Source: an uncultured Acidobacteriota bacterium (GTDB taxonomy: Bacteria; Acidobacteriota; Terriglobia; UBA7540). From it: 64,000 nt of DNA. The notes under the pieces were generated by a model. That model ran no database searches, had not been told where the DNA came from, and saw only the letters and a list, made by a program, of their open reading frames with translations. The DNA lies in contig CAZKXX010000005.1 of the NCBI GenBank assembly GCA_964556705.1, forward strand, positions 197 through 64,196. Reading direction: 5' to 3'. Below, piece after piece: positions 7,535 to 63,240 of the stretch (the stretch's first letter is position 1; every line of letters starts with the position of its first letter). The translations under genes were made by a program, and so were the position numbers.

Positions 7535-8430
7535 AGGAGCCTCGCCAGAATTTCGCCCGCCGTGCCGCGAAGCACCCATTCGGCGCCGGTATCGAGCGGA
7601 GTTGGTTCCGGATTCACCACTGCAATCTTTGCGCCCGCCTGCCGCGCGACTTCGACCAGCCCGGCCGCGGGGTAAACCACACCCGAAGTCCCGATGACCA
7701 GAAAAACGCGCGCCGTCGCGCTCGCCTCCGCGGCGCGCGCCCATTCGCCGGCGGGGAGCAATTCGCCGAACCAGACCACGCCGGGCCGCAGAAGCCCGCC
7801 GCAGGCGCACCGCGGCGGCAGAGGGTCGAGCGGCACGCGCTCGTCGCGCCCTTCCCGGCCGCAGCCCAGACAGCGGAGCGTCCACAGGTCACCGTGGAGT
7901 TTCGCAATCTGTCGGCTGCCCGCGCGGTCGTGAAGCCCGTCCACGTTCTGGGTGATGAGCGTGAAGCGCCGCCCGCTTTCCACGAATCGCCGCTCGAGTT
8001 CGGCCAGCGCCCGGTGCCCCGCGTTCGGCCCGGCGCGCTCCACGCAGCCGCGCCGCCAGTCGTACCATTCCCACACCAGTCGCGGGTCGCGCTCGAACGC
8101 TTCCGGCGTGGCCAGTTGCTCGGGCCGGTAGTTCCGCCACAGAGCTCTCGCGTCCGATTGCCCCCGAAACGTCGCAACGCCGCTTTCCGCCGAGATCCCG
8201 GCGCCCGTCAGCGCGGCCACGCACTGCGCCTTCGCCAGCGCCCGGCGCAGTTCGCCGAGCGGCTCTCCCGCCGAGACTCGGTCCGCTTCTTGAGGCAAGC
8301 GTCTGAAGTTAACGATAGTAAGTTGCCCCTCGGGGGATGTCAATTCTCGGAATCGAAGGCACGTCCCCGGCGAGGCGTGGGGCGATCTCGAAAGGCTGCC
8401 GCCCGCCGCGGGGCGGGTGGGGTCCGGCAC
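7531..8430 (-). CDS. cobB: Sir2 family NAD-dependent protein deacylase (CobB-like); start uncertain
   Basis: It has TGAGISAESGVATFRG, QNVDGLH and a zinc ribbon (CLGCG...CACGG). The stop overlaps the larC start (ATGA). The N-terminal ~60 aa of the listed ORF look non-conserved, and a TTG start near RRLPQEADR is possible. Confidence 0.75.
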   Translation of the reverse strand: MPDPTRPAAGGSLSRSPHASPGTCLRFRELTSPEGQLTIVNFRRLPQEADRVSAGEPLGELRRALAKAQCVAALTGAGISAESGVATFRGQSDARALWRNYRPEQLATPEAFERDPRLVWEWYDWRRGCVERAGPNAGHRALAELERRFVESGRRFTLITQNVDGLHDRAGSRQIAKLHGDLWTLRCLGCGREGRDERVPLDPLPPRCACGGLLRPGVVWFGELLPAGEWARAAEASATARVFLVIGTSGVVYPAAGLVEVARQAGAKIAVVNPEPTPLDTGAEWVLRGTAGEILARLL

Positions 8431-24911: not shown

Positions 24912-26993
24912 TTACGGCGTGTCGCTCAATTCCTCCAGCAATTCCTTTGCCTGGTAAACACTTCGCAGGGCCTCGCGGATGCCTTCCGAATGGACGGAGA
25001 TCGCGCGTGGAAGCTCTTCGCGGTAGAGGAACCGGTTGGGCAACTGGTGGATGTTGCCGTCGAAAATCAGTCCCACCACTTCGCCCGACGCGTTGACGAC
25101 GGGGCTGCCGGAATTGCCGCCGATGATGTCGTTGGTGGAAACGAAGTTGAACGGCGTTTTGAGCTTCAGCGCCGATTTGCGTTCGACAAAACTCTTCGGC
25201 AACCGGTATGGGGACCTGCCCGTGGCGCGCTTGTAGAGGCCGCGGAAATCGGTGGCCCAGGGGATCTTCTCCTTGTTTTCCACGTAGCCGCGGACCGCGC
25301 CGTAGCTGAGACGCAGCGTGAAGGTGGCTTCCGGCGCGACGCTGCGTCCGCGCGCGGCGAAGAGGGCTTTGGCCACGAGCGTTCCCTGCGTCTGCTCGAC
25401 GCTTTCGATTTCGTCTTCGTAGCGTTTCAGCAGCGCGCGCGCGTCGGCATCCACTTCGCGCGCGAAAACAATCATCGGGTCCTGAGAATTCTGGATGGCT
25501 TCGAGCCCCCCCGCGGCGAGCCGTTTGCGCTCCGCCACGTCCTGGAGCTTCGTGCCGCGCACCAGTTCTTCCGCCCGCTGCGCGGGAGTCTTGCCGGCGA
25601 GCAGCTTGCGCGCCAGCGGGTTCGCGCCGCCCAGCTCTTCCTGAAGGACGGCGAGCCCGTGCGTGAAGTTGGCGATTTCGAGCGAATCGTAGAGGGGGGC
25701 AGTGGAATAAAGCTGGAGTTCGAGCGAAGGCAGCGCGGACTCGCGATAGGGCGGCAGGCGCTGCTCGTTCGCCTTGGTCTTCTCCTCCGCCAGACGCACC
25801 AGATGGCGGGCGTGGGTGAACAGCTTCGAGGCTTTCAGCCCGACACCCGAAAATTCCACGAAGTACCAGGGCGCGAAGAAGGCGCGGAAGGATTGCTGCG
25901 CGCGAGCCAGCGCGTCCCAGGCGCCGCCGTACTGCCGCTGCCATTCGGGATTCGCCGCCACCCTGGCCCTCAGGTCTTCTTCATCCTTTCGCTTCGCCGC
26001 CATCAGTTGCGGGTCGAGCAGGCCGGACTGGTATCCTTTGATCGCCTTGAGCGAATTTTCGACGGAAAACAAATCGTCGGAGGCGACGCGGGCTTCTTCC
26101 TCGCCGCGCGCGCTGAATTCCGCCAAAGCCTTCCGCCAGCGCTCGAGCGCGCGCAGGATCGTCGGGTAGCGGACGTCGCGCAGAAATTCGAGCTGGGAGA
26201 GCGTCAGCAGCCGGCCCGTCGAGCCCGGATGGCCGGAGACGAACACGAGGTCGCCCTCGCGCGCGCCGTTCGGGCTCCAGCGCAGGAACTGCTCGGTCCG
26301 TGCCGGCTGGCCGTTTTCGTAGGCGCGGAAAAACGCCACGTCGAGACAGTAACGCGGGAACGTGAAGTTGTCCGGATCGCCCCCGAAGAAGGCGATATCT
26401 TCCTCCGGCGCGAAGACCAGCCGCACGTCGGTAAACTTCTTGTAGCGATAGACGTTGAAGAGTTCTCCGGCGTAGAGCGTCACCACGTCGCAGCGAAGTC
26501 CGGTCCGGTCGGCGCATTCCTTTTCGATGCGCGCCGTCTGCTCGCGCTGGGCGCGGGCGCGCTCGGCGTCCGACATTTCGGGCTTCAGCGTGGCGTTGAC
26601 CTGTTCGGTGACGTCGTCCAGGCTGACGAGCACGTTCAGCTCGAAATCCGGGCAGGGTTTTTCCTCGGCGTGCGTGCGGGCGTAAAACCCGTTGGCGATG
26701 TAGTTGTTTTCCGCGGTGCTCAGCGCCTGAATGCACTCACGGCCCACGTGATGGTTCGTCATCGCCAGGCCCTGCGGCGAAACGAACGAGCCCGAGCCGC
26801 CGTTGTTGAAGCGCACGGAAGCCAGGCGCAGCCGGTCGAGCCATTCCTCGGTGGGGTCGAACTTGTAGCGCTGCTTTACCTGCTCGACGGGAAATTCGTT
26901 GAACAGCCACATGCCCTCTTCGGCCGGCGCCGAAAGCGGCAGCGCCGCGAACGCCAGCGCAAGAGTCAGGGAACGAATGAGAGCTTTGACCAT
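24912..26993 (-). CDS. S46 family dipeptidyl-peptidase (DPP7/DPP11-like)
   Basis: The ATG at 26993 gives a signal peptide followed by AEEGMWLFNEFP, the family hallmark. It also has TNHHVG, and GGNSGSPVV carries the catalytic Ser. Confidence 0.85.
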   Translation of the reverse strand: MVKALIRSLTLALAFAALPLSAPAEEGMWLFNEFPVEQVKQRYKFDPTEEWLDRLRLASVRFNNGGSGSFVSPQGLAMTNHHVGRECIQALSTAENNYIANGFYARTHAEEKPCPDFELNVLVSLDDVTEQVNATLKPEMSDAERARAQREQTARIEKECADRTGLRCDVVTLYAGELFNVYRYKKFTDVRLVFAPEEDIAFFGGDPDNFTFPRYCLDVAFFRAYENGQPARTEQFLRWSPNGAREGDLVFVSGHPGSTGRLLTLSQLEFLRDVRYPTILRALERWRKALAEFSARGEEEARVASDDLFSVENSLKAIKGYQSGLLDPQLMAAKRKDEEDLRARVAANPEWQRQYGGAWDALARAQQSFRAFFAPWYFVEFSGVGLKASKLFTHARHLVRLAEEKTKANEQRLPPYRESALPSLELQLYSTAPLYDSLEIANFTHGLAVLQEELGGANPLARKLLAGKTPAQRAEELVRGTKLQDVAERKRLAAGGLEAIQNSQDPMIVFAREVDADARALLKRYEDEIESVEQTQGTLVAKALFAARGRSVAPEATFTLRLSYGAVRGYVENKEKIPWATDFRGLYKRATGRSPYRLPKSFVERKSALKLKTPFNFVSTNDIIGGNSGSPVVNASGEVVGLIFDGNIHQLPNRFLYREELPRAISVHSEGIREALRSVYQAKELLEELSDTP

Positions 26994-27148
26994 CGAATAT
27001 CTCCGGAATGAAGAATTGCGGCGAGCCTGATTGCGGCAGGGCATCTGCCTCCCTGCTCCGCTTGAGCAGGCAGAGCTGCGAAAAACGGAAAAACCATTCT
27101 CGCACCCTGGCGCGGTAAAGACAACACGCCACGCGCGAAGGCCGGCAT

Positions 27149-27177
27149 TTGACTTCGCCCGCCGTCCCACCTAGACT
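27149..27177 (+). promoter_or_regulatory. sigma70-like promoter TTGACT-N17-TAGACT upstream of the cyclase gene
   Basis: The hexamers lie at 27149-27154 and 27172-27177 with an exact 17-nt spacer. The site is about 70 nt upstream of the ATG at 27250. Confidence 0.35.
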
Positions 27178-49267: not shown

Positions 49268-50944
49268 ATGCGTCGAATCGGCCTTTTCGCACTGAGTCTG
49301 GCGGGGCTCTGGAATGCCCTCTACCTGTTGTGGGCGTACACGACGCCTTCCATTCCGATGACCTGCGTCGGCGACGGGTGCGACGCGGTCCGCGCCAGCG
49401 AATACGCTTTCCTGTGGGGAGTGCCGCTGCCCGCTTTCGGCGTGGCCATGTTCCTGACGCTGGCGCTGCTGGTATTCATCGGCCCGTTGCTCAACGCCGA
49501 CCTGGAACGCCTGGCGCGCTACGCGCTGGTGGCGATTTCGGGATTCGGCTTCGCTTTTTCCCTTTATCTGACGGCCCTGGAAGCGTTCGTCATTCGCGCC
49601 TGGTGTTTCTGGTGCGTGGTCTCGGCGGTGCTGATTACGGTGATATTCGCGCTGGCGGTCCTCGACATGGTGCGCCCCCGCCCGCGCGGGGCAGCGGCGG
49701 GGCCGCCCGCCGCCCTCGCCGCGTTGCGGGGATTCGTGGTGACCGCCGTCATCGCGGTCGCCCTCGGCGTCCCGGCCTTCATCCTCCTGATGCGCCAGGC
49801 CGCGGTGGAGCCGCTCGAGGTGGCGGCGGGTGAGGGCGTGGCGGAGCGGCTGGTGCGCCCCGACAGCCACATCACCGGAAACGCGCTGGCGCCCGTCACC
49901 GTCGTCGAGTGGGCCGACTTCCAGTGTCCCGCGTGTTCGCGCGCCGAAGAGACGGCGAGAGAAATCCGGCGCCAGTACGGCGACCGCGTGCGTTTCGTCT
50001 TCCGGCAATTCCCGCTGGAACGCCTCCACCCCCACGCGCGGAGGGCGGCCGAAGCCAGCGAATGCGCCGGCGAGCAGGGGAAGTTCTGGGAGGCGGTCGA
50101 GAAATTCTTCGATCACCAGGAGGACTTGAGCGAGGCGGCGATGGTCCGCTCCGCAGGCGAGATGAGGCTGGACGTCGAGCGCTTCCGCGAGTGTCTCGCC
50201 AGCGCGCGAATGGCCGCCCGCGTGGAGCGCGACGTTCAGGACGCGCGGGCCCTCGGGCTGCGCGCCACGCCGACGTTCTTCGTCGGCCGGACCGTGGTGG
50301 AAGGGCCCCTGGCGGTGCGCGACTTCGCTCGGCTCGTGGAGGCCGAACTGGCCCGCGCCAAGGTCACGGGCCCCCGGGAAGAATCGGTCGCCGCGACTCC
50401 ACCGGGTCCGCCGAGCAATGATAAGCCGCCCTTGGAGGAAAAGAGTGGAACGAGCGCCCAAGCCCCCGAGGCGGCGGGTCAAGCCTCCGCCGGGAGCGGC
50501 GGCGGCCTGTCAGGTTTCGGAACCCTGCGGCTGGGGGGCGGAGCTTTCTCCACCTTTCAATCCTCCGCCACCACGTGCAGTGAAGAAGATCTGGCCCGGC
50601 AGCAGCCGGACATGATTCACACGGCGCAGGCGCGACAGATGTTTGAACGAGACTCTTCCGCCCTGTTTGTGGACGTCCGCCCGGCGCGCGAATTCGCCAC
50701 GCGGAGGATTCGCGGCGCCGTCAGCATCCCCGTTGAGGAAATCGAACAGCGCTGGAGCGAGTTGCCGCAGGACCGCGAAATCGTTCTGTATGAAAGCGGC
50801 AAAGGGCGCGGCGACGACCTTTGCGCCGCGGCCGTCGCGGCCGGGCGGGTGCTGCTGGCTCGCGGTTTCGCCCAGGAACGCGTAAAAGTCTTCCAGGACG
50901 GACTCGCCGCCTGGGAGCGGAGCGGCCTGCCCGTCGAGCCTTAA
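49268..50944 (+). CDS. VKOR (vitamin K epoxide reductase) + DsbA-like thioredoxin + rhodanese-like triple fusion
   Basis: The VKOR part has 4-5 TM segments with CVGDGC and CFWC. The thioredoxin part has EWADFQCPAC. A Gly/Ser/Pro linker precedes a C-terminal rhodanese-like fold (FVDVRPAREF...IRGAVSIP...VLYESGKGRG). Confidence 0.7.
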   Translation: MRRIGLFALSLAGLWNALYLLWAYTTPSIPMTCVGDGCDAVRASEYAFLWGVPLPAFGVAMFLTLALLVFIGPLLNADLERLARYALVAISGFGFAFSLYLTALEAFVIRAWCFWCVVSAVLITVIFALAVLDMVRPRPRGAAAGPPAALAALRGFVVTAVIAVALGVPAFILLMRQAAVEPLEVAAGEGVAERLVRPDSHITGNALAPVTVVEWADFQCPACSRAEETAREIRRQYGDRVRFVFRQFPLERLHPHARRAAEASECAGEQGKFWEAVEKFFDHQEDLSEAAMVRSAGEMRLDVERFRECLASARMAARVERDVQDARALGLRATPTFFVGRTVVEGPLAVRDFARLVEAELARAKVTGPREESVAATPPGPPSNDKPPLEEKSGTSAQAPEAAGQASAGSGGGLSGFGTLRLGGGAFSTFQSSATTCSEEDLARQQPDMIHTAQARQMFERDSSALFVDVRPAREFATRRIRGAVSIPVEEIEQRWSELPQDREIVLYESGKGRGDDLCAAAVAAGRVLLARGFAQERVKVFQDGLAAWERSGLPVEP

Positions 50945-51433: not shown

Positions 51434-52912
51434 ATGCCGGTACTGATCGAACACATCACCGAATTCGTGATCGCAGTCCTGATTCTGGTCGTGCTGGGGA
51501 CCGGAGCGCTGGTGGCGGCGGCCATCGCGCGACGCCAGCGGCGGGAGCGCTACTTCCAGCGGATCGATGACCTCCGCCAGCGATACAAGCCGGTGATCAC
51601 CGCCGTTCTGGCGCAAAAGCTCGAATACGTCCGCGGCGTCGAACTGTTGCGCGGCATCTCCGGGTTCGACCGCGAGTATGTCCTCGAGCAGCTTTGTCTG
51701 GAGGTTCATGCCACCGGCGAAGAGATTCCCATCCTGCGTCACCTCTGCGAGGACCTGGGCCTGGTGCGGCTGTGGCAGTCGCGGCTTTCCGGGCAGATGA
51801 ACATCGCTTCCCTGCGCGAAGCCTTCACGCGGCCCGAGGGATTTCTGGAGTGGTTCGGGGGACTGCGTTTTCTGCTGCGCGCCAAAAGCGCCGACAACCT
51901 GGGCATCATCCGCCATCGGGCGAGCTGGCCGCTGCTGGTGAAGGCGCTGGAGGATTCGCATCCGGACGTGCAGAGCGTCGCCGTACGGTCGCTCGCGGCG
52001 ATTCAGGAGCCGGAGAGCTTTCCGGCGCTGGTCCAGAGGCTGCACGACGTGGTTCTGAAACCCTCCACGCGCCTTTCGCTGCGCGCCGTCAAGACGGCGC
52101 TGGTGAGCTTCCCGCTCTCCTACGGCCCGAAGCTGATTCCCTCCCTGACCCACTCGCACCGCCGGATCCGTTTTCTGGCCACCGACGTCATCCGGGAAAT
52201 CGTCGAGCGCCTGGCGGGACAGGACGAGGAGTTCATGCTCGACCCGCGCGACTTTTCGCCGGCGCTGGCGGAAGTCTTCCTCACCCAGCTCTGCTTCGAC
52301 GAAAACCCGGACGTGCGGGCGCGCGCCGCGCCGGTGGTGGCCTATCTGGCCGACCCGCGGTCCACGCCCGTGCTGCTGACGCTGCTCGAAGACGCGCAGT
52401 GGTTCGTTCGGCTGCACACCGTTCGCGCCTTCGCCAGGCGGCGATTCATCTCGCAGGCGGCCCACCTGGCCCACCGGCTGACCGACCCGCACTGGATGGT
52501 CCGCGAGGCGGCGGCGCGCACCATGCTGGTCTACGGACAAGTCGGCAACGAGCAGCTGGCCACGCACTTCCTGAGCACCGAGGACCGCTACAGCCAGGAA
52601 CAGATCGCCGACGAAATGCAGCGCGCCGGACTCATCCCTTCGCTCCTCGCTCAATACGCCACCGAGAGCGGCGGCTCGACGGGCCGCGTTCTGGAGCGGC
52701 TGGTGAGCATGGGGAAGACCAGTTACCTAGTCAGCCTGTTGGCGCAGACTTCCGAACGCTCAGTCCGTCAGAAATTTCTCCAGAAATGGGGACGCAGCAG
52801 CGACCCGCAAATCAAGGGCTGGGTGGTGGACGTCGCTTCGAGCGAGGTTGACCCGACTCTGCGCACGCTGGCCGTCGAGTTCCTGCGGACGAGGGTCGAA
52901 CCGGGGGCCTGA
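51434..52912 (+). CDS. N-terminally TM-anchored HEAT-repeat protein
   Basis: The TM segment is FVIAVLILVVLGTGALVAAAIA. Repeated HEAT signatures follow (DSHPDVQSVAVRSLAAI, HRRIRFLATDVI, NPDVRARAAPVVAYL, QWFVRLHTVRAFA, HWMVREAAARTM). Confidence 0.7.
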   Translation: MPVLIEHITEFVIAVLILVVLGTGALVAAAIARRQRRERYFQRIDDLRQRYKPVITAVLAQKLEYVRGVELLRGISGFDREYVLEQLCLEVHATGEEIPILRHLCEDLGLVRLWQSRLSGQMNIASLREAFTRPEGFLEWFGGLRFLLRAKSADNLGIIRHRASWPLLVKALEDSHPDVQSVAVRSLAAIQEPESFPALVQRLHDVVLKPSTRLSLRAVKTALVSFPLSYGPKLIPSLTHSHRRIRFLATDVIREIVERLAGQDEEFMLDPRDFSPALAEVFLTQLCFDENPDVRARAAPVVAYLADPRSTPVLLTLLEDAQWFVRLHTVRAFARRRFISQAAHLAHRLTDPHWMVREAAARTMLVYGQVGNEQLATHFLSTEDRYSQEQIADEMQRAGLIPSLLAQYATESGGSTGRVLERLVSMGKTSYLVSLLAQTSERSVRQKFLQKWGRSSDPQIKGWVVDVASSEVDPTLRTLAVEFLRTRVEPGA

Positions 52913-52925: not shown

Positions 52926-54356
52926 ATGGAATGGGATGTCGTAAGACAGTGGTTCATCCACGGTATGAACATGTTTACCGTGGTGATCATCAGCTACTTC
53001 TTCCTCGCCAACGGCGGCTACACCATCCTGATGCTGCTGTCGCTCGGCTCGACCTGGCTTCACAACCGGCGGCTCACTTACCAGGGGCTCGATGAACTGC
53101 GCGAATCGGTTGTGACGCCGCCCGTCACGATCATCATTCCCGCCTGGAACGAAGAGGAAGTCATCGTCGAATCGGTGCGCTCCGTCCTGCGCACCGAATA
53201 CCCCAGCTTCGAAGTCGTGGTCGTGGACGACGGCTCGACGGACAAGTCGCTGGAACGTCTCATCACCGCCTTTCGCCTGGTCAGGATGGACCTCATCTAC
53301 CGCCCCCGCCTGCAGACCAAGCATGTCAAGGGCATCTATATGAACCCGCGGCTGCCGAACCTGCTGGTGGTGAGCAAGGTCAACGGCGGGAAGCCCGACG
53401 CTCTGAACGCCGGCATCAACATCTGCCGCACGCCCTACTTCTGCACGCTCGACGCCGACTGCATTCTGGAGCGGGACGCGCTGCTGCGGCTGATGCGTCC
53501 CATCGTGCGCTCGCCCGTCAATACGGTCGCCAGCGGCGGCATCGTGCGCATCCTGAACGGCTGCGAGGTCCGCGACGGCCGGGTGGTGGACGTCCGCCTG
53601 CCCCCCACTGCTATCGAGCGTTTCCAGGTCGTCGAATACCTCCGCAGCTTTCTGTTCGGCCGGACCGGCTGGGACATCCTGGGCGGGACGCTGATCGTTT
53701 CCGGCGCCTTCGCCGTGTTCCACCGCGAGACGGTGGTGGAGGCGAATGGATTTCACCACGACACGGTCACCGAGGACATGGACCTGATCGTCCAAATCCA
53801 TCGCTGGGCCGTCCACAATAACCGCAAGATCAAAATGAAGTTCACGTCGGACCCCGTCTGCTGGACCGAGTGTCCGACGTCCATGAGGATGCTCGGCCGA
53901 CAACGGCGGCGCTGGCAGCTCGGACTGTGCCAGACGTTGTGGAAGCACTCCGAGATGCTGTTCAACAGCCGTTACGGCGCCATCGGTATGGGGAGTTTTC
54001 CTTTCCACCTCTACGTCGAGGCGCTGGGAGCGCCGGTGGAGTTCCTCGGATACTTCATGGTCCCTCTGGCGCTGGCGTTTGGCATGGTTCCGCCGCAACT
54101 GTTCATTCTGTTTGTGCTCCTCAGTCTGGTTTACGGAGCGTTCCTCTCGGTGGGCGCGGTCCTGCTCGAGGAACTCACCTACCGGCGTTACCCCCGCTTC
54201 ACCGAATTGATGACCCTGTTGAAATACGCGATGCTGGAGAATATCGGATACCGGCAGGTCATTCTGTTCTACCGCGTTCAGGGCGTCTGGCATTTCCTGA
54301 CAGGCTTCCGAAAATGGGAAAAGGTCGTCCACGTGGGAGCCACGGAGCAGGCCTAG
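52926..54356 (+). CDS. processive family-2 glycosyltransferase (PgaC/IcaA/cellulose-synthase-like polysaccharide synthase)
   Basis: It has N- and C-terminal TM segments and the motifs IIIPAWNEE, VVVDDGSTD, GGKPDALNAG, LDADC, TEDMDL and QRRRWQLG (QxxRW). Confidence 0.85.
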   Translation: MEWDVVRQWFIHGMNMFTVVIISYFFLANGGYTILMLLSLGSTWLHNRRLTYQGLDELRESVVTPPVTIIIPAWNEEEVIVESVRSVLRTEYPSFEVVVVDDGSTDKSLERLITAFRLVRMDLIYRPRLQTKHVKGIYMNPRLPNLLVVSKVNGGKPDALNAGINICRTPYFCTLDADCILERDALLRLMRPIVRSPVNTVASGGIVRILNGCEVRDGRVVDVRLPPTAIERFQVVEYLRSFLFGRTGWDILGGTLIVSGAFAVFHRETVVEANGFHHDTVTEDMDLIVQIHRWAVHNNRKIKMKFTSDPVCWTECPTSMRMLGRQRRRWQLGLCQTLWKHSEMLFNSRYGAIGMGSFPFHLYVEALGAPVEFLGYFMVPLALAFGMVPPQLFILFVLLSLVYGAFLSVGAVLLEELTYRRYPRFTELMTLLKYAMLENIGYRQVILFYRVQGVWHFLTGFRKWEKVVHVGATEQA

Positions 54357-54359: not shown

Positions 54360-57287
54360 ATGCGGATTCTCGGCAATCGAATTGTCATCTCGCTGATTGT
54401 CATCGCCATCGCCACGACGTTGTGGGAATTCGTGGTCAAGCCGGTGAGCGGGCCGCTTTACACGGCGGCCGTGAACGAATACCGGGCGGGCAACTACGAA
54501 CGTTCGCTCGAACTGCTCCAGCAGGCCTACCGGATCGATCCCAACAGCGCCGCCGTGCTGGCGCTGATGGGCTGGAATTACCTGAAACTGGGCCAGCCGG
54601 CGCAGGCTGAAGAGCCCTATTTCCGCCGCGCCCACATGCTGGCTCCCAACGAGCCGGATATCGCGCTGGGTTATGCTTACACCCAGGTCGAGCTGGGAAA
54701 AGTCGACGAAGCCTTCCGCATCCTGAACCAGCTTCGCGAACGCGGCGTCGCCGGCGCGGACGTGCACGTTGCCCAAGGCGCGCTTTATCGCCAGCTCGGC
54801 CGCAATCGGGAGGCCGCCCGCGAGTTTCAACTGGCCCTGGCGGCGGACACTTCGAATCCGACCGCGGAACAGAACCTGCGCGAGCTTTACGCCACCACGG
54901 GCGATTTGGAGGGGCTGCGCGGGGAGCGCCGCCCGTTCGTCCGCCCCGAGAAACTCACGCAGACCTTCCGCGCGCGCGGGGAGGCCTTCGAATACTTGAG
55001 CGGGGGCGAGTGGAAGACCGTTTATCTGGCCGGCGTCTCGCTCACGGCCGCCCTTCCCGGACGTTTCCCGGCGGAATCGCGCGTGGAAGCGGCGCTCTAT
55101 CGCCAGTGGCTCACGCAGATCAGCGGCCTCGGCGCCAACACCGTCCGCGCCTCCCTGCTGCTGCCTCCGGCGTTTTACCGCGCGCTGAGGGAGCACAACC
55201 TTTCCGGCGCAAGTCCCCTCTTCCTCGTGCAGGGCGTTCCGCTGGGTGAGCCGCCGCAGGCCGACCTGCTCGACCCCGATTTCCTGCGTGCCAGCCAGAA
55301 CGAGATTCGCTTCGCGCTGGACGCGCTGCACGGCCAGGGGGACGTTCCCTGGCGGCCCGGCCGCATCGGCGGCATCTACGACGACTCGGTGGCCGAATGG
55401 ACGGCGGGACTGGTGATCGGCGACACCTGGCTTCCCCACCTCGTCATCGCCAACAACCAGCGCCATCCGGAAACCGGCAGCTTTAACGGGACGTATTTCC
55501 AGGTCGCTTCGGGCAGCGCCACGGAAGTCTTCCTCGGCCGGCTGCTCGACTTCGCCGCCGAGTATGAGGAGAAGGCTTACAACTGGCAACGGCCGCTGGC
55601 CTTCCTGACCTGGCCGTCCCTCGACCCGATGCGCCATCCGACGGAGAGCACGATTCTGGAAGAGGTGGCCATCCGGCGGGCGCGCGGAGAACGCGTGCCG
55701 GTGCCTTCCGGCCCTTACGATGACGACGACAGCGTTTCCGTGGACCCCCTGCGGCTTCAGCCCAAGCCGCGCCTCGCGGCCGGCTACTTCGCCGCCTACA
55801 GCGTCTTCCCTTCTTATCCCGACTTCATGAACTATCAACCCAGCTACCAGGCCGTGCGCGACGCGCAAGGCAGCAATCCCTTTCTCGGCTACCTGCGCGA
55901 CTTGAAGGCCAACCATCGCGGCCTTCCGCTGCTCGTCGCCGACTACGGAATCCCCTCGAGCCACGGCATCGGCCACCTGAGCCCCGCCGGGTTCCATGAG
56001 GGCGGACACAACGAACGGCAGCAGGGTGAATTGCTGGCGCGGCTGACGCGCAGCGTTCACGAGGCGGGCGCCGCCGGCGGCATGATCTACGAATGGCTGG
56101 ACCAGTGGTTTCGCCAGTCCTGGCAATTCCGCCGTTTTGAGGTTCCCTCGGAGCGCAGTCCGCGCTGGCTGAACGCTCTGGATCCCGCCGAGCAGTTCGG
56201 TCTGGTCGCCGCAGAACCCGCCTCACGCGGCCCGCTCGCGTTGCGCGGCTTGCCGGAAGATTTTGAGGGGAAACCTCCGCTTTACTCTTCGCGCAGCAGC
56301 GGGCCGGCGCGCCCGGCGGAAGACGCCTTTGACGCGGCGCGGCACCTCAAGGCTCTCTACGTGGACGCGGATGAAGCTTTTCTGCACCTGCGGCTGGAAG
56401 TGGGACGTCTGGACAACAACGGAGACGGCCAGCCGGACTGGAACCAGGCCCGGTACGTGATCGGCCTCTCCACGCTTCCCGGACGGGCGGGCCTGCAGAC
56501 GCTGCCTTTCATCGCGCCGCTCGTGTTCCCCATGGGGATGACGTACGCCGTCCAGTTGGGCGGGCCCGAGGAGACCCGGGTTCTCGTGGCCTCCTCGTAC
56601 ACGCCCTTCCGCATCGACCCGATCGAGGGGATTCGCGGGCAGACGGGCATGCGCCTCGACTTGGGATGGCAGGCGGAGCTGGCAAGCGAAGGGGAGTTCG
56701 AGCCCCAAATGGCCGAGCCGAACCGGCGACGCTACGGGCGCGACGGGCGTTACTTCCCGCCCCTGCGTTACGAACGCGGACTGCTGCGTTTCGGAAGTCT
56801 CGACCCGCAATCGCCCAACTACAATTCGCTGGCCGGCTGGAACGTCAACCTGGCGACGAACACGGTGGACGTCCGCATCCCCTGGGGGCTCCTGGGTGTC
56901 ACCGACCCTTCGAGCTTCCAAGTGATGACCGCGGTCCGCGAAGACGGCTCGGTTGAAACCGCGGAAACACCCGGATTTCTTATCACGGCGTTCTCCTATC
57001 GGCCCGCGGACGCTGCGCGCCAACGTCCGCCGATGGAACAGCACCACGCCGTCGCGGATTCGCTTCCGGCCCTCTCCGCCACCCAGACGCGCGTCGATGC
57101 GGCCTCGCTGCGATCCTACCGCTGGACGGGCTGGGACCAGCCTCAGTACAAGCTGCGGCCGAAGGAGTCCTGGGCGGCGTTGCGCAAGGCGTTCCAGGCG
57201 CTGCCCGCCGGCCCGGAGAGCGCGGCCCCGCCAGCCACGCGAACGGCCCAGGGGCGGAGCGCCGCGGCGGGGCGCGCCGGCCGCTGA
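54360..57287 (+). CDS. TM/signal anchor + TPR + clan-GH-A-like TIM-barrel protein (paralogue 1, candidate catalytic Glu positions substituted)
   Basis: The N-terminal TPR block is followed by GANTVRASLLLPPAFYRAL, VIGDTW, FLTWPSLDP, LLVADYGIPSS and IYEWLDQWF. It is collinear with 57353..60124. Confidence 0.65.
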   Translation: MRILGNRIVISLIVIAIATTLWEFVVKPVSGPLYTAAVNEYRAGNYERSLELLQQAYRIDPNSAAVLALMGWNYLKLGQPAQAEEPYFRRAHMLAPNEPDIALGYAYTQVELGKVDEAFRILNQLRERGVAGADVHVAQGALYRQLGRNREAAREFQLALAADTSNPTAEQNLRELYATTGDLEGLRGERRPFVRPEKLTQTFRARGEAFEYLSGGEWKTVYLAGVSLTAALPGRFPAESRVEAALYRQWLTQISGLGANTVRASLLLPPAFYRALREHNLSGASPLFLVQGVPLGEPPQADLLDPDFLRASQNEIRFALDALHGQGDVPWRPGRIGGIYDDSVAEWTAGLVIGDTWLPHLVIANNQRHPETGSFNGTYFQVASGSATEVFLGRLLDFAAEYEEKAYNWQRPLAFLTWPSLDPMRHPTESTILEEVAIRRARGERVPVPSGPYDDDDSVSVDPLRLQPKPRLAAGYFAAYSVFPSYPDFMNYQPSYQAVRDAQGSNPFLGYLRDLKANHRGLPLLVADYGIPSSHGIGHLSPAGFHEGGHNERQQGELLARLTRSVHEAGAAGGMIYEWLDQWFRQSWQFRRFEVPSERSPRWLNALDPAEQFGLVAAEPASRGPLALRGLPEDFEGKPPLYSSRSSGPARPAEDAFDAARHLKALYVDADEAFLHLRLEVGRLDNNGDGQPDWNQARYVIGLSTLPGRAGLQTLPFIAPLVFPMGMTYAVQLGGPEETRVLVASSYTPFRIDPIEGIRGQTGMRLDLGWQAELASEGEFEPQMAEPNRRRYGRDGRYFPPLRYERGLLRFGSLDPQSPNYNSLAGWNVNLATNTVDVRIPWGLLGVTDPSSFQVMTAVREDGSVETAETPGFLITAFSYRPADAARQRPPMEQHHAVADSLPALSATQTRVDAASLRSYRWTGWDQPQYKLRPKESWAALRKAFQALPAGPESAAPPATRTAQGRSAAAGRAGR

Positions 57288-57352
57288 GGGGAACGGCCGA
57301 AAAGTCAGGATGGGCCCCCGCGATCTCGTCCGGGGGCAGACGAACTGGGTGA

Positions 57353-60124
57353 ATGCGGCTGTTCCGTAAACCGATCGTCGTCGTGGCGATTCTGGCCCTG
57401 ACCGGCGGCTTCGTCTCCTGGTGGCGCAACTGGCGTCCGGTCAGCGGCGCTTTCTACACCGTGGCCGTGGACCAGTACCAGGCCGGCGAGTTCGAAGGGT
57501 CGCTCGAGAACCTGAGGAAGGCTTACCGGCTGAATCCGCTCGACACGGCGATCCTTCGACAGATCGGCTGGAGCCATTTGAGGCTGGGGAACTACGACGA
57601 GGCGCACCGCTACTTTCTGCGCGCCTTGCGCTTCAACCCCCGGCTTGATGAGGCGCGCCTCGGCCTGGGCTACGCACTGCTCGAAAAGCGAGAATTCGCG
57701 CGCGCCCTGGCGTTATTCGACCGGCTGCCGGAGGAGATGCGCGAGGCTTCGGACGTGCAGGGGGCGCTGGCGCGAGTCGCGCGGCTTCAAGGCCGCAACC
57801 GCGACGCGCTCGGCATCGTGGAGAAGATGTTGCAGAAGAATTCCCAGGACGCCCTCGGCCTTCAGGAGCTCGCCTTCCTGACGGGCGCCGGAAGCCTCCA
57901 GGAGCTGGAGGCCCGTCGCAGCGGACCGGCCGAACGGCCCGACTCGCGGACGCTGCGCGCCCGGATTCGCGACGGCTTCTTTGAAGTCCCTGCGGGCGGC
58001 GGCTGGAAGAGGCTCTACATCGCCGGAGTCAACATCGGACCGGCAGTTCCCGGCCGTTTCGCCTCCGAGCCCCCCGTCGAAATGAGCGTGTACCTTGAAT
58101 GGCTGAACCTGATCCGCGAAATGGGCGCCAACACGGTCCGCCTCTACACGCTCCTTCCCCCGGCCTTTTACCGCGCGCTCGACGAGCACAACGCCGTGCA
58201 CGCGGCGACGCCCCTTTATCTCTTTCAGGAAGTCTGGCTCGAAGACCCGCCGCTCGACAACCTTCTCGACCCTTCCTTCACGGCGGGGTTCGAGAAAGAA
58301 ATCCGGCGCGTCATTGACGCCCTGCACGGCCGGGCGGACATCGCGTTCGAGCGCGGCCACGCGGCGGGCCTCTACGAGGTGGACGTCTCCCGCTACGTCC
58401 TCGCCTGGGTGATCGGGCGGGAGATCGAGCCGCATGTAGTCATCACCACGAACCTGCGGAATCCCGGCGTCAGCAACTTCCGGGGACGCTACCTCCGGAT
58501 CGAGGACGGAAACCCGACGGAAGTCTGGCTGACGCGCATGTGCGACGGCGCGGTGGCCTACGAAATCGAAGCGTACAACCAGGAGCGGCCGGTGGCGTTT
58601 GTGAACTGGCCGCCGCTCGACCCCCTTGAGCATCCCAGCGAATCGCGGCTCGTGGATGAATTGAAGATTCGCGCCGCGCGGGGCGAAAAACTGGCGCCGC
58701 TCGGTCTGGGCGTTCAGGACGATCTCGACGTCGTTTCCGTGGACGAGGAAAAAGTCACCGCCCAGCCCCACTTCGAGGCGGGTTACTTCGGTTTCCTGCA
58801 CGTGTACCCCTTCTGGCCCGACTTCATGTTCCAGGAGCCGCAGTTCCTGGAGGCGCGCGACCACCTCGGCCCCAGCGCCTACTGGGGCTACCTCCAGGCG
58901 CTCAAGCGGCACTATCGCCGCACCCCCCTGCTGATTGGCGAGTATGGGATGTCCACGAGCCTCGGCATCGCGCACTTCCATCCTCATGGCATGCATCACG
59001 GCGGAATGAGCGAGCAGCGGCAGGGCGAGATGGTCGTGCGCCTCACCAAGAACATTCGCGACGCGGGGTTTGCAGGCGGCATCCTGTTCGAGTGGATAGA
59101 CGAGTGGTGGAAACACAACTGGATTGCCGACGAGTGGGAGAAGCCGTTCCACCGCAAAGCGTTCTGGCACAACGAGCTGAACCCGGAGCAGTCATTCGGA
59201 TTGGCGAAGTTCCTGCCTCGGGCCCTCCTCCACTACACTCCCCTCGGGACGCCGGCTCCGGCCACCGAAGCGCAAACGCGCCCGCCCCGAATCCGCGGGG
59301 TCGAGTGGGCCCGGGACGCGGCGGCTTTTTATGTGGATGTCGTCCTCGACCTGCCGCGCGGCGCTGAGCCCGACTGGAGCCGCGACCGTTACCTGATTAC
59401 GCTCAACACCTGCGACGCGCCTTGCGGGTCGGGAACGTTGCCTTACGCCAACGTGCGGGTTGAGCCGGGAGCGAATTTTCTGGTCCACGTGGCCGGCCCG
59501 GACTCGACGCGCCTGCTGGTGGCGCGGAACTACAACCCTTACCGTGCGGTGACGGTCGAAGGCGTCTCGGGCGGCGTGGAGCTGACCGTGCCGCCTAACC
59601 TCGACCTGTCGTTCGACGCCGCGGGCGCGTTCGACGAGCTGGTGATCGAAACCAACCGCCGCCGCTACGCGCGCGACGGGCGCGTTTTCGAGCCCATCCG
59701 CTACAGCCGCAGCCCGCTCGGCTACGGCGTGTTCGACACCATCTCCAGCGCCTACGACTCGCGCGCCCAGTGGTATTACGACTCCGCCTCGCGCCGTCTG
59801 CGCTTCCGGCTCTCCTGGGCGCTGCTGCTGACCCTCGACCCTTCCCAGGGATTCATCTACGCGGGAACCAACGGCCGCGCGGAAACCTTGGGACGCACGT
59901 CGAACCGCATCGAATTGAGCGCGGTCGCGTACCCGGAAGGCGGAGACGCGGCACAGGTGGTCGCCGGGGAGGCTGCGGGCGGGGTGATTACCCAGGGACT
60001 GGAAGTGCCCTGGCCCCGGTGGAACGAACTGCCCCACCGGCTGAAACTGAAGCAGAGCTATCCGATCGTCGCTGAAGCGCTTGGCCGCCTGACCGGCTAC
60101 GGCGCCTCGGCAGGAGGCCCGTAA
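57353..60124 (+). CDS. TM/signal anchor + TPR + clan-GH-A-like TIM-barrel glycosidase/transglycosylase candidate (paralogue 2)
   Basis: It has GANTVRLYTLLPPAFYRAL, VIGREIEPH (acid/base-like Glu), FVNWPPLDP, LLIGEYGMSTS (nucleophile-like Glu) and LFEWIDEWW. Confidence 0.65.
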   Translation: MRLFRKPIVVVAILALTGGFVSWWRNWRPVSGAFYTVAVDQYQAGEFEGSLENLRKAYRLNPLDTAILRQIGWSHLRLGNYDEAHRYFLRALRFNPRLDEARLGLGYALLEKREFARALALFDRLPEEMREASDVQGALARVARLQGRNRDALGIVEKMLQKNSQDALGLQELAFLTGAGSLQELEARRSGPAERPDSRTLRARIRDGFFEVPAGGGWKRLYIAGVNIGPAVPGRFASEPPVEMSVYLEWLNLIREMGANTVRLYTLLPPAFYRALDEHNAVHAATPLYLFQEVWLEDPPLDNLLDPSFTAGFEKEIRRVIDALHGRADIAFERGHAAGLYEVDVSRYVLAWVIGREIEPHVVITTNLRNPGVSNFRGRYLRIEDGNPTEVWLTRMCDGAVAYEIEAYNQERPVAFVNWPPLDPLEHPSESRLVDELKIRAARGEKLAPLGLGVQDDLDVVSVDEEKVTAQPHFEAGYFGFLHVYPFWPDFMFQEPQFLEARDHLGPSAYWGYLQALKRHYRRTPLLIGEYGMSTSLGIAHFHPHGMHHGGMSEQRQGEMVVRLTKNIRDAGFAGGILFEWIDEWWKHNWIADEWEKPFHRKAFWHNELNPEQSFGLAKFLPRALLHYTPLGTPAPATEAQTRPPRIRGVEWARDAAAFYVDVVLDLPRGAEPDWSRDRYLITLNTCDAPCGSGTLPYANVRVEPGANFLVHVAGPDSTRLLVARNYNPYRAVTVEGVSGGVELTVPPNLDLSFDAAGAFDELVIETNRRRYARDGRVFEPIRYSRSPLGYGVFDTISSAYDSRAQWYYDSASRRLRFRLSWALLLTLDPSQGFIYAGTNGRAETLGRTSNRIELSAVAYPEGGDAAQVVAGEAAGGVITQGLEVPWPRWNELPHRLKLKQSYPIVAEALGRLTGYGASAGGP

Positions 60125-63100
60125 TGACCGAGCAAGTTGGATTCCCGCGCGCCTGGCCCCGCCCCGGCGGGCTGGCGCGAGTCTTCGTCCTGACCGGGCT
60201 CCTGGTCGGGATGAGCGCCCCTGTCCCGGCCGGCGCTTTCCCGCCGCAGGCGACGACACAGGTGCGTCAGGCGGCGATTGCCAAGTCCAACCGTCGTCTG
60301 GCCGTCGAGCCCATGGACTTCGGGACGCGCGTGGAACTGGCGCGGCTGCTCGCGCAGGAGCGCGACTTTGCCGCTGCGCTCGAAAATTACGAGTTTGTTC
60401 TCCGCCATCGTCCGGAAAACCTCGCGGCGCGCATCGGCCGCGCGCAGGTGCTCGGCTGGACGGGCCGCCATCGCGAAGCTCTCGCCGAGGTGGAAAAGGT
60501 CCTCGCCGCGAACCCCAGGAACTTCGAAGCGCGGATCGTCAAGGCCTACAACCTGCTCTGGCTGGGTGAACTGAGTCAGGCGAAATCCCTCTTTGAGCAG
60601 TTGGCCCGCGAGAACCCACGCCATTCCGACGCGCGCGAAGGGCTGATCGAAGTCGAAAAAGCCGAACGCGCCGCCGCCGATGCGCCGCCGCCGGCTCCCG
60701 CCCGCACACCGGCTCTGGAAGCCGCCGAGCGCGCCGAAGCGGAAGGGAATTACGCGGAGGCGGTCCGCCAGTACCGCCAGCACCTCGCCCAGTCTCCGCG
60801 CGACTCCGACGCCGAATTCCGCCTGGCGCGCGTCCTGGGCTGGAACCGCGATTACGCGGAGTCGGAAAAGGTGCTCCGCGACTACGCTCAGCGCTTTCCC
60901 TCTAACCCCGAGGCGTTCTTCCAGCTCGCCCGCGTGCTGAGCTGGCAGGAGAAATATCCCGAGGCCGTGGACTATTACCGCAAAGGCCTGGCCTTGCGTC
61001 CCGAAGCCGACGCGCAGCGCGTGGAGTTGGCGCGCGTGCTGGCCTACACGGGCGAGCACGCCCGCGCCCTCGATGAATATCGAGTCGCCCTCCAGATGCG
61101 CCCTGACAATCGCGAGGCGCAGGTGGGTGTCGTGGAAGCGCTGATCCAAACCGGGGAAATCGGCACGGCCCGGCGGGAAATAAACCGGCTGAGCCAGCAG
61201 TATCCGGGCGACCGGCAAATCGAGGCGCTCAAGCAGGACTTGGAATCGGCCACGCTGCGCCGGGCCCGCGACCAGGCCACCGGCCCCGAGGCCGAGGCCC
61301 GCCTGCGCGCGCTCGTAAACGAAAATCCCGAAAGCGTCGAGGCGCGCATGGCGCTGGCCGAAGTGCTGCTGGCGCGCAACGACTTTCCCGGCGCGCTCCA
61401 GGAGTTCCGCGCCGTCCGCCAGCTTCGTCCTGACGATGAGGCGTTGCAACTGCAACTGGCACGCGTGCTGAGCTGGAACCAGCAGTTCGCCGAGTCCGTC
61501 AAGCTCTATCAGGAGTATCTCGTCCGGAACCCGCAGGATCTGCCGGTGCGCCAGGAAATGGCCCGCGTGATGAGCTGGTGGCGCGACTACAACGCCTCCG
61601 TCGCCGAATACCGGCGCATCCTGGCCGAGAACCCCGACGACACACAGACGCGACTGGAAATGGCGCGCGTGCTCTCCTGGTCGCGCGAATACGGCCCCGC
61701 GTTGGAGGAGTTTGAGGACCTGATTCGCCGCGACCCGAAGAATTTTGACGCCTGGCTCGGCAAAGGGCGCGTCCACACTTACCGCCAGCAGTGGAAGGAC
61801 GCGCGGCGGGCACTGGATACGGCGCTCGAAATCAAGCCCGGAGACCGTGAAGCGACGACCGCACGGGCCCAGGTGGAACTCTGGTCGGGCAATCCCGACG
61901 GCGCGCAGAAGATGTTGTCCGAACTCCATGCGGCTGACCCCTCGGATACGACCGTCCTGCTCTCGATGGCCTCCGCCGAGAATTCCCTGGGCCGGCCCGA
62001 CCGCGCCCTCAATTTGCTCGAAGAAGCCGAACGTATCGAGCCGCGCAACACCGACGTCCGCGCCCTGCGCGAGGCTATCCAGCGTGGCATGCGCCCCGAA
62101 CTTCGCTTCGGCTGGAGCTACGTCCGCGACACCGAAGGGCTCAACATCTGGCGCTACCAGCTTCTGGATTTCCGCTTCAATCTCCACCCGCGGCTGCGAA
62201 ACTTCATTACCGTGGACGTGTTGCCCTCGTCGGCGCTGGCCGAAATTTTCGGCTATCGAGTGTTTCAGAACGGCGAGTCCTTTTTCTCCCCGCGCGTACC
62301 CGTGGAGCCCTTTGTTCCCGCCCCGACCGCGCTGGGGTTTGACGACTTCCCGCCGGATGTGCTGGTCTCCGGCGGTGACCGCATCGCCCAGAACGCGCTC
62401 CAGTTTCAGTTCGGCGGGACGGCGCAAATCTCCTCGGCGTTCTCGCTTACGGCGAGCGGGGGCTTGATCCAATTGCGCCACGGTGCTCGCGATTTCAGTG
62501 GATTGCCTGCCACACACGAGCGGGCCATCTGGTCCGTCTCGCCGACGTTCAAGCTTGGCCGGCATGTGCAAATCAACCTGGGCACTGCGCGGCGGTATTT
62601 CCCTTACACCCCGAAGTCGGTGGCGCAGACCATGCACGCCGACGAATACACGGGCGACCTCATCCTGAGCCCCGATTCGCGCACGCGCATCGCCTTCGGT
62701 TATTACCACCGCGCCCTTTCGCCGGAATTCCTCCTGCCCGACATCCCGTTGCCCGACGGCGGCACTTTTGCCGGCCGCGTCTTCCGGAGAAAAGGCAACG
62801 GCGGCACCCTCTCCGCCACCCGTATTCTCTGGCGCGGCGAGAAGGCGGAGTTCGAAGCGGGTTACGACGCCATGCTCTTTGGCTATACGAGCCCGGAGGG
62901 ACTGCCCTCGCCGGAGTTCTTCCTGAACACCGGCTTCTTCACGCCCAGCTTCTACCAGCGCCACGCGGGGCTGGCGCGCGTCACCTTGAAGCCTTCGCGT
63001 TACATCGTCTGGGACCTTCACGGGACGGCGGGCCCGCAGCAGATCCGGCAGCGGTCCGATTTCAGCTTCAGCTCGACGGCGGGCTCGCGGCTGGATTTCG

Positions 63101-63240
63101 TCTTTACCCCCGACTTCGTGCTGAGTGTCGGGTACGACTATTTCAACACAGCTTCCGCGCTCCAGGCGCTCATCGTGCCCGGCCGCGCGGCCGCCTATCA
63201 CAGCAACAACGTCTATGCGACGTTGCTGATTCGATTTTAG
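60124..63240 (+). CDS. TPR-rich outer-membrane export porin (PgaA/BcsC-like): signal peptide, about 15 TPR, C-terminal beta-barrel
   Basis: Its start overlaps the previous stop (TAATG). It has many TPR units (LARVLGW/LARVLSW repeats). The last ~380 aa show an alternating beta pattern ending in YATLLIRF, with an aromatic C-terminus. Confidence 0.7.
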   Translation: MTEQVGFPRAWPRPGGLARVFVLTGLLVGMSAPVPAGAFPPQATTQVRQAAIAKSNRRLAVEPMDFGTRVELARLLAQERDFAAALENYEFVLRHRPENLAARIGRAQVLGWTGRHREALAEVEKVLAANPRNFEARIVKAYNLLWLGELSQAKSLFEQLARENPRHSDAREGLIEVEKAERAAADAPPPAPARTPALEAAERAEAEGNYAEAVRQYRQHLAQSPRDSDAEFRLARVLGWNRDYAESEKVLRDYAQRFPSNPEAFFQLARVLSWQEKYPEAVDYYRKGLALRPEADAQRVELARVLAYTGEHARALDEYRVALQMRPDNREAQVGVVEALIQTGEIGTARREINRLSQQYPGDRQIEALKQDLESATLRRARDQATGPEAEARLRALVNENPESVEARMALAEVLLARNDFPGALQEFRAVRQLRPDDEALQLQLARVLSWNQQFAESVKLYQEYLVRNPQDLPVRQEMARVMSWWRDYNASVAEYRRILAENPDDTQTRLEMARVLSWSREYGPALEEFEDLIRRDPKNFDAWLGKGRVHTYRQQWKDARRALDTALEIKPGDREATTARAQVELWSGNPDGAQKMLSELHAADPSDTTVLLSMASAENSLGRPDRALNLLEEAERIEPRNTDVRALREAIQRGMRPELRFGWSYVRDTEGLNIWRYQLLDFRFNLHPRLRNFITVDVLPSSALAEIFGYRVFQNGESFFSPRVPVEPFVPAPTALGFDDFPPDVLVSGGDRIAQNALQFQFGGTAQISSAFSLTASGGLIQLRHGARDFSGLPATHERAIWSVSPTFKLGRHVQINLGTARRYFPYTPKSVAQTMHADEYTGDLILSPDSRTRIAFGYYHRALSPEFLLPDIPLPDGGTFAGRVFRRKGNGGTLSATRILWRGEKAEFEAGYDAMLFGYTSPEGLPSPEFFLNTGFFTPSFYQRHAGLARVTLKPSRYIVWDLHGTAGPQQIRQRSDFSFSSTAGSRLDFVFTPDFVLSVGYDYFNTASALQALIVPGRAAAYHSNNVYATLLIRF

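Follow-up and report, generated by a model that had tools for sequence, protein, structure and literature searches.

The stretch studied here, which we call the window, comprises 64,000 nucleotides of contig CAZKXX010000005.1 from an uncultured Acidobacteriota bacterium, and carries near its end what looks like a synthase-dependent exopolysaccharide (EPS) operon of a Terriglobia (Acidobacteriota) bacterium, a soil acidobacterium. Its five genes, all on the plus strand, encode in order a HEAT-repeat protein, a processive family 2 glycosyltransferase (GT2) synthase, two related proteins of 975 and 923 residues designated P1 and P2, and a putative TPR-porin (Table 1). P1 and P2 both combine a transmembrane (TM) anchor, a TPR module, a barrel of the glycoside hydrolase (GH) clan GH-A type and a β-rich C-terminal domain; the barrel of P2 has an intact catalytic signature and that of P1 a degenerate one. 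We consider it probable that P2 is a retaining glycosidase and P1 a non-hydrolytic subunit, both at work in a synthase-dependent EPS operon.

Table 1. Genes, catalytic positions and neighbours; positions refer to the window unless a related locus (L number) is named.
Feature	Position	Strand	Remarks
P1, 975 aa	54360..57287	+	ATG start; TM anchor, TPR, degenerate GH-A-type barrel, β-rich C-terminal domain
P2, 923 aa	57353..60124	+	ATG start; TM anchor, TPR, intact-signature GH-A-type barrel, β-rich C-terminal domain
P2 E357 (GAG), acid/base candidate, in VIGREIEP	58421..58423	+	three residues after β4 (349-354)
P2 H483-V484-Y485	58799..58807	+	H-x-Y motif at β6 end, GH5-type
P2 E530 (GAG), nucleophile candidate, in LLIGEYG	58940..58942	+	penultimate residue of β7 (526-531)
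P1 D355-T356-W357-L358, against P2 R356-E357-I358-E359	55422..55433	+	after β4; acid/base position lost
P1 T356 (ACC), in VIGDTWLP	55425-55427		
P1 D528 (GAC), in LLVADYG	55941..55943	+	aligned with P2 E530; within β7 of the P1 model
HEAT-repeat protein	51434..52912	+	Pfam HEAT_2 4.9e-26; first gene of the conserved module
Membrane-embedded processive family 2 glycosyltransferase (GT2), putative polymer synthase	52926..54356	+	Pfam Glycos_transf_2, Glyco_tranf_2_3
Long TPR protein, 1038 aa, putative outer-membrane export porin	60124..63240	+	start overlaps the P2 stop codon
VKOR / thioredoxin-DsbA / rhodanese fusion	49268..50944	+	directly upstream of the operon; conserved neighbour
metG	4251-6248	-	
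LarC-type nickel insertion protein	6341-7885	-	
Fumarase	16489-18036	+	
S46 peptidase	24912-27170	-	
dCache/PAS hybrid histidine kinase, 1216 aa	38980-42630	-	
320-330 aa TPR protein of related loci	L085:11969-12934; L086:12373-13335; L087:11930-12922; L088:11956-12948		also in L005 and L084; between P1-type and porin genes

P1 and P2 are ancient paralogues, whose match begins in the N-terminal hydrophobic segment and ends near residue 850 (BLASTP: 39% identity, 56% positives, 850 columns, 567 bits, E = 0); tblastn found no third copy in the window. A first-pass annotation of the window had described them as aligning end to end, with both candidate catalytic glutamates lost from P1. The peptides it quoted are all present, a codon check found its four codons and their positions correct, and in a MAFFT alignment the residues that it paired share columns. 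The approximate layout of P1 is a TM segment at residues 1-30, TPR at 33-185, the barrel at 200-620 and the C-terminal domain at 620-950. P1 and P2 have one hydrophobic segment each, at the N-terminus, and both lack a cysteine for a lipobox. Pfam and NCBIfam recognise only the TPR repeats (residues ~33-185) of P1 and P2; the remaining ~730-780 residues have no Pfam match even at E ≤ 10, and neither the barrel alone nor the C-terminal domain alone matches a Pfam or NCBIfam model.

AlphaFold2 models covering residue 195 to the end, built on alignments of 141 and 143 homologues, were confident for both P2 (pLDDT 95.9, pTM 0.94) and P1 (pLDDT 94.1, pTM 0.92). By DSSP, each model consists of eight β/α units, the (β/α)8 barrel of clan GH-A, followed by a β-rich region of ~300 residues. 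In P2 the barrel strands are β1 223-228, β2 261-264, β3 289-294, β4 349-354, β5 414-418, β6 480-483, β7 526-531 and β8 575-578; in the P1 model β4 spans 348-353 and β7 524-529. When the models were compared with the PDB using Foldseek, the 50 best matches listed for either one all belonged to clan GH-A with a probability of 1.00, and the GH-A-type barrel proposed earlier is upheld. First among them is the GH157 endo-β-1,3-glucanase LaGH157 (E 6e-12 for P2, 2e-12 for P1), and the others include GH2 β-glucuronidases, galacturonidases and LacZ, as well as GH5, GH1, GH164, GH39 PslG (9g17_A, E 4e-6) and GH72 Gas2 structures, at 9-14% identity overall and 10-12% against GH157. When full-length P2 or alignment A1 was used to search the PDB sequences, TPR matches dominated the results, and a barrel-trimmed alignment (A3) was used instead; the best PDB sequence match of its hidden Markov model (HMM) was again LaGH157, at an E of 0.05 over ~100 residues. 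Judged by these searches, the barrel family lies outside GH5, GH72 and GH2, and no Pfam or NCBIfam model covers it: the barrel alone has no match to Pfam Cellulase (PF00150, GH5) at E ≤ 10, there is no Pfam Glyco_hydro_2_C or Glyco_hydro_72 match, the likeness to GH2 and GH72 being at fold level only, and a profile E of 0.05 with 10-12% identity in the structural alignment does not place it in GH157.

Enzymes of clan GH-A carry their acid/base after β4 and their nucleophile at β7, and in their retaining hydrolysis the two carboxylates stand about 5 Å apart. P2 has a glutamate at both places, E357 after β4 and E530 on β7, the strand ends to which the first-pass annotation had assigned them, and P1 has T356 and D528 there. 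The barrel HMM aligns P-L-L-I-G-E-Y-G of P2 with P-F-I-T-T-E-F-G of LaGH157, in which the Glu aligned to E530 is, by counting, E224; a laminaritriose complex of the E224A variant is available as PDB 9g4n, and we infer the catalytic role of E224 from that PDB title and the motif. An hhalign comparison of A3 with E. coli β-glucuronidase, which covered the nucleophile region only, set the same motif against I-I-I-T-E-Y-G with a probability of 5.8%. In the E. coli enzyme we take E504 of I-I-I-T-E-Y-G to be the nucleophile and E413 of W-S-I-A-N-E-P to be the acid/base, and W-V-I-G-R-E of P2 parallels W-S-I-A-N-E. These three motif alignments agree, each being weak alone; conservation across relatives is the stronger argument for the placement. 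We compared 78 relatives from other genomes, taken from one-genome-per-species contigs of more than 10 phyla including archaea (Terriglobia, Nitrospirota, Gemmatimonadota, Eisenbacteria, Bacteroidota, Thermus, many Bacillota, haloarchaea and Thermoplasmatales). E357 is Glu in 77 of the 78, and R263, Y265, W295, E357, N418, H483, Y485, E530, E584 and W585 have at most two exceptions per position; in 126 metagenomic relatives these same positions are at least 94% conserved, with E357 at 98% and E530 at 99% among the 126 P2-type and single-copy sequences. Across the 78, position 356 is R, I, T, V or S and position 359 is E, D, Y, H, G, P or F. E359, which stands in an x-E-P context reminiscent of the N-E-P of GH5, was considered as an alternative acid/base and rejected, being variable across phyla where E357 is invariant. 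In sequence and model, the signature of P2 is a GH5-type constellation of R on β2, E after β4, H-x-Y on β6, E on β7 and W on β8. Of the eight residues conserved in GH5 (R, H, N, E, H, Y, E and W), six have equivalents (R263, E357, H483, Y485, E530 and W585), and the departures are a Trp, W295, for the β3 His and R356 for the Asn ahead of the acid/base. As Asn is typical at this place in clan GH-A, its replacement means that chemistry or substrate may differ.

The fate of the same positions in P1 was followed through its orthologues. Two protein searches yielded 240 representatives, the P1-type set being clustered at 90% identity, and a joint alignment and neighbour-joining tree divided them into three groups: a monophyletic P1 clade of Terriglobia on a long stem, with 116 sequences including the window protein (124 with the genome loci), a monophyletic P2 clade of ~44 sequences, and ~80 other sequences, mostly single-copy. 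The P1-clade representatives, of which there are at least 116, share 51-60% identity with the window P1. Not one of the 124 P1-clade sequences keeps both E357 and E530, and none keeps W295, H483 or E359, so that the substitutions first noticed in the window copy extend to its orthologues. Calculated on the 116 P1-type representatives from the protein searches, E357 is retained singly in 11% (98% in the P2 and other groups) and E530 in 20% (99%), the latter position being D in 56% and A in 16%, with G and S besides. The contrast at these two positions is not a matter of chance. The loss reaches beyond the two glutamates: of residues conserved at ≥94% in the P2 and other groups, W295, E359 and H483 stand at 0% in the P1 clade, R356 at 5% and Y485 at 1% (mostly Phe), positions 483 and 485 being S/N and F/L, and W585 is kept in 100%. 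By subclade, position 530 is E in some early branches and D, A, G or S elsewhere, a pattern suggestive of a single loss of the cleft residues on the P1 stem, with repeated drift of the orphaned nucleophile afterwards. Separately, a metagenomic protein of 958 aa, P0041, with the signature RYWRDEDSYEEW, is sister to the P1 clade in the tree; it has D in place of both E357 and N418 and S in place of H483, keeps E359, E530, W295 and Y485, and may be an intermediate between the intact and degenerate forms.

These data bear on whether P1 might still be an enzyme, either with a rebuilt site that uses D528 as nucleophile together with another carboxylate, or with some other chemistry on a modified polymer. 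Position 530 is acidic in much of the clade (D in ~56%, E in ~20%), there are 54 clade-specific conserved residues including a near-invariant inserted Trp, and the cleft-side residues D322, H325, W419, D423, H427, H541, W585 and W605 are kept in P1 as in all clades. However, about a quarter of the clade has A, G or S at position 530, which leaves no conserved nucleophile there; the acid/base, the nucleophile-positioning H-x-Y and W295 are lost across the clade, and near β4 or β7 none of the P1-specific conserved positions supplies a replacement carboxylate. We accordingly regard continued catalysis by P1 as improbable and favour a non-hydrolytic role for it.

A non-hydrolytic P1 might also be a decaying duplicate, a pseudogene in the making, as its lost catalytic residues and variable nucleophile position might lead one to think. 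The closest relative of the window is L093, where the genes follow in identical order, and a comparison of the two speaks otherwise. The ratio of nonsynonymous to synonymous substitution rates (dN/dS) is 0.079 for whole P1 and 0.082 for its barrel, against 0.132 for whole P2, 0.082 for the P2 barrel and 0.025 for GT2, P1 as a whole thus lying below P2. In addition, the frame is intact over 975 codons, the many clade representatives share numerous invariant residues, and seven of the loci read have P1 as their only barrel protein. Pairwise identity between barrels averages 0.62 within the P1 clade and 0.64 within the P2 clade, and 54 P1-specific positions are conserved at ≥90% in the P1 clade, among them the near-invariant Trp inserted between the former Glu positions and a conserved insertion in the C-terminal domain. 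P1 is under strong purifying selection and is conserved as tightly as P2. Decay is therefore very improbable, and a functionless relic is refuted by the selection and distribution data. The profile of P1 is that of a neofunctionalised pseudoenzyme which may bind sugar chains, and the pseudoenzyme suggested in the first-pass annotation is well supported by the clade-wide loss of the catalytic constellation together with the strong purifying selection.

The distribution of intact and degenerate copies was then examined at related Terriglobia loci, of which ~20 kb each were read. A scan of metagenome contigs with P1 as the single protein gave one locus only, and loci were sampled by way of the encoding contigs instead. 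The compared loci have common flanks, with the VKOR-DsbA gene upstream and genes for a short-chain dehydrogenase, Lar_N and UxaE downstream. A degenerate and an intact copy occur together in the window, L001, L002 and L093, the operon being conserved in the latter three; the degenerate copy occurs alone in L004, L005 and L084-L088, and the intact copy alone in L090 and L091. Of the 11 P1-type Terriglobia loci read, 7 thus have P1 as the sole barrel protein, and four further degenerate-plus-intact pairs are suggested by P1- and P2-type clusters whose contigs are of identical length. The pairing of an active enzyme with an altered copy, as put forward earlier, holds in this window and is the rarer arrangement among the P1-type loci read: in most P1-type loci sampled, over ~20 kb each, the degenerate copy is a stand-alone component. 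In the neighbour-joining tree the paired members are spread over the P1 clade, a distribution that an old tandem pair could have left after losing one partner repeatedly.

Six of the seven loci with the degenerate copy alone have, after P1, a gene for a protein of 320-330 aa made up of an N-terminal TM segment, a domain of ~150 aa bearing a protein tyrosine phosphatase (PTP)-like HCxxGxxR (HCx5R) motif, and C-terminal TPRs (Table 1). The motif reads HCYLGKHRV, with the Cys changed to Gly in L086, and Pfam detects the TPRs only. The protein is absent from the window, L001 and L002. A reading of it as a truncated P2 was rejected, the N-terminal domain being a different one, the TPR lying at the C-terminus and the match to P2 falling within the TPR only. 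The porin of the window is 50% identical to that of L001, 43% to that of L015/L089 and 24-31% to those of the loci with the degenerate copy alone, and P2 and its porin may travel as a unit. At L089:10001-16287, on the same contig as L015, a P2-type intact barrel gene and a TPR-porin gene lie together without HEAT or GT2 genes and in the surroundings of Replic_Relax, ParB, RuvC and DUF932 genes; from this gene content, L089 may be a mobile element with a hydrolase-porin module.

The other operon proteins place P1 and P2 beside a putative polymer synthase. GT2 is membrane-embedded, with hydrophobic segments at both its N- and C-terminus, and has the D, DxD, (T/E)ED and QxxRW motifs of synthase-dependent EPS systems in the form of DDGS (127), DAD (202), TED (308) and QRRRW (352). 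Its best NCBIfam match, to PgaC_IcaA, scores 110 bits where the cut-off is 422 bits, and its residues 90-380 can be aligned with BcsA. The HEAT protein has one N-terminal hydrophobic segment (residues 1-34), and its gene precedes the GT2 gene in Terriglobia, Nitrospirota, Eisenbacteria and Peribacillus loci. At least 10 TPR Pfam matches and a C-terminal non-TPR region of ~380 aa make up the putative porin, whose partial NCBIfam matches to PgaA (118 bits, cut-off 367) and BcsC are below the cut-offs and which has a counterpart at the same place in related loci. Pfam finds no PilZ or GGDEF domain in the five operon proteins, and no CE4 domain in the operon proteins. With its PgaC_IcaA and PgaA scores below the cut-offs and no CE4 domain found, the operon is not assigned to poly-N-acetylglucosamine synthesis (pgaABCD); it is not a Pga, Bcs, Pel or alginate system.

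In the mechanism that we propose, GT2 would polymerise a β-linked polymer and translocate it across the inner membrane, with the HEAT protein as its cytoplasmic or membrane partner. P1 and P2, each tethered to the inner membrane by one N-terminal helix, are predicted to project their TPR module, GH-A-type barrel and β-rich domain into the periplasm, where P2 would cut or trim the nascent polymer as a retaining GH-A enzyme, as PslG, BcsZ, PelA and PgaB do, and P1 would keep hold of the chain or guide it, leaving it uncut, in a polymer-binding or scaffolding function between synthase and porin. The TPR modules of P1 and P2 may dock onto each other or onto the long TPR arm of the porin, by analogy with the PgaA TPR domain and PgaB (PMC9384988). 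P2, then, most likely hydrolyses the polymer, and P1 would bind glycan.

The association with GT2 reaches far beyond Terriglobia. At E ≤ 1e-3 a search with the barrel alone returned 1292 representatives of clusters made at 50% identity, and at E ≤ 1e-30 it returned 501; the barrel family looks like a compact, self-contained one at the sequence level. In most of 80 genome loci a GT2 homologue (28-52% identity) lies within the ~10-kb flanks, usually adjoining the barrel gene and often with a HEAT protein before it, and these GT2-linked loci span monoderm Bacillota, Thermus, diderm phyla and archaea including haloarchaea. Bacillota, archaeal and Nitrospirota homologues have no Pfam or NCBIfam match in the barrel or C-terminal region, the sole matches in the homologues scanned being two sub-threshold TPRs at the N-terminus of the Nitrospirota protein. 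In Peribacillus sp. SCS-155 (L026:4764-15347), genes for a response-regulator-GGDEF protein, a HEAT protein, GT2, a 1082-aa barrel protein with a ~370-aa N-terminal extension lacking any family match, and a PAS/GAF hybrid histidine kinase follow one another, a gene order that suggests control of the Peribacillus module by cyclic di-GMP. Our literature searches brought up no description of this operon type or module. That the HEAT protein, processive GT2 and barrel protein constitute an undescribed EPS synthase module of Bacteria and Archaea, with the barrel as a core component whose duplicate became non-catalytic in Terriglobia, is a tentative proposal for which we would not claim even chances.

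The frequency of GT2 in these flanks also fits a core subunit over a clean-up enzyme, and raises the alternative that the family as a whole, with P2 in it, is not primarily hydrolytic and acts in transglycosylation or as a co-synthase subunit that remodels the polymer, either in the manner of the fungal GH72 Gas or GH17 enzymes or as an obligatory synthase partner like BcsB. The Glu pair of P2 would then serve chain transfer or cross-linking, and P1 would have kept the guiding role only. GH72 ScGas2 is among the fold matches, the canonical Asn ahead of the acid/base is missing, and the loci with the degenerate copy alone show that the system is possible without an intact barrel at the locus. 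On the other hand, the best fold and sequence match is an endo-glucanase, and GH-A transglycosylases and hydrolases share their catalytic residues, such that sequence cannot separate the two. We judge this alternative unlikely, although clearly less so than an enzymatic or a decaying P1, and retain P2 as a glycosidase and P1 as a non-hydrolytic subunit.

Several known systems resemble parts of this arrangement. Like P1 and P2, PslG of Pseudomonas aeruginosa (GH39) is encoded within an EPS operon and has a GH-A (β/α)8 barrel with a β-sandwich behind it. The Psl system is of the Wzx/Wzy type, unlike the synthase-dependent operon here; PslG has no TPR module, unlike P1 and P2, shares no detectable sequence similarity with them, and has no known dead paralogue. 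Its inner-membrane association and hydrolytic activity are reported to contribute to polymer biosynthesis (PMC6813494). LaGH157 (PDB 9fz9, 9g4n, 9g5g) is the best structural match of both paralogues, its sequence-profile match being marginal, and shares with P2 the x-E-[FY]-G motif on β7 (E224). GH157 enzymes are catabolic surface enzymes of polysaccharide-utilisation loci, as in Bacteroides (PMC10229575), and not synthase partners; they are without a TM and TPR module, and at 10-12% identity to P1 and P2 their substrate specificity cannot be transferred. The C-terminal domain of PgaB (GH153) offers a closer parallel in its setting, as a periplasmic barrel accompanied by a PgaC-like GT2 and the TPR-porin PgaA. 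This domain was reportedly first taken as a non-catalytic polymer-binding domain needed for export (PMC5933820), and PgaA has a polymer-binding TPR domain by which the hydrolase is modulated (PMC9384988). PgaB differs in being a lipoprotein with a CE4 deacetylase domain, where Pfam detects no CE4 in the operon here, and in that TPRs are fused to the barrel protein in P1 and P2; it is not among the fold matches listed. GH18 chi-lectins, secreted eukaryotic lectins of another fold clan, are catalytically dead glycosidase-fold proteins. As with P1, their glycosidase fold remained under selection after loss of the catalytic acid, and they are presumed or shown to be glycan binders; the term pseudoenzyme is in use in a review (PMC7828330). 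P1 is unlike them in being membrane-anchored, in belonging to a bacterial polymer-export operon and in often being the sole family member at its locus.

Some points weigh against a hydrolytic P2 with a non-hydrolytic P1. The genomes with the degenerate copy alone may have an active paralogue elsewhere, ~20 kb having been read per locus, and D528 of P1 could act as a weak nucleophile. The residue ahead of the acid/base is Arg, Ile, Thr or Val, the placement of the catalytic residues draws on DSSP strand order and on motif alignments of low weight (E = 0.05; hhalign 5.8%), and the tree is a simple neighbour-joining one without support values. Both the activity of P2 and the polymer itself are inferred. 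Dead glycosidase folds and hydrolases in EPS operons are already known; new here are an unannotated GH-A-like family tied to a GT2 synthase across prokaryotes, and a lineage with a dead version as a regular operon component. Whether the glycoside hydrolases of EPS operons (PslG, PelA, BcsZ, PgaB and AlgL) are needed for catalysis or for structure is debated. If our reading is right, the Terriglobia loci would be a natural experiment that separates the structural from the catalytic role of an EPS "hydrolase", and the occurrence at one chromosomal locus of intact-only, degenerate-only and paired genotypes would make the question testable by comparison and by gene swaps. The barrel family is also a candidate for a new CAZy family and can serve to mark a polymer not yet characterised, and acidobacterial EPS is of ecological interest for soil aggregation.

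Turning to the remaining features of the window, the open reading frame listed for GT2 has its start at TTG 52848, so that 65 nt of it lie within the HEAT gene; a start at ATG 52926 (MEWDVV...), 14 nt past the HEAT stop codon, seems likelier because the orthologues have 471-476 aa. The VKOR / thioredoxin-DsbA / rhodanese fusion gene is found upstream in 10 related Terriglobia loci (L001, L002, L004, L005, L084-L088 and L090), its product being 44-54% identical to the window protein in the nine P1-carrying loci compared by tblastn. It may belong functionally to the polymer system, and a link to disulfide formation in periplasmic components is possible. Positions 1-49000 are ordinary-looking chromosome with an even GC content of 60-68%, holding tRNA-Asn, tRNA-Lys and tRNA-Glu besides the genes given in Table 1.

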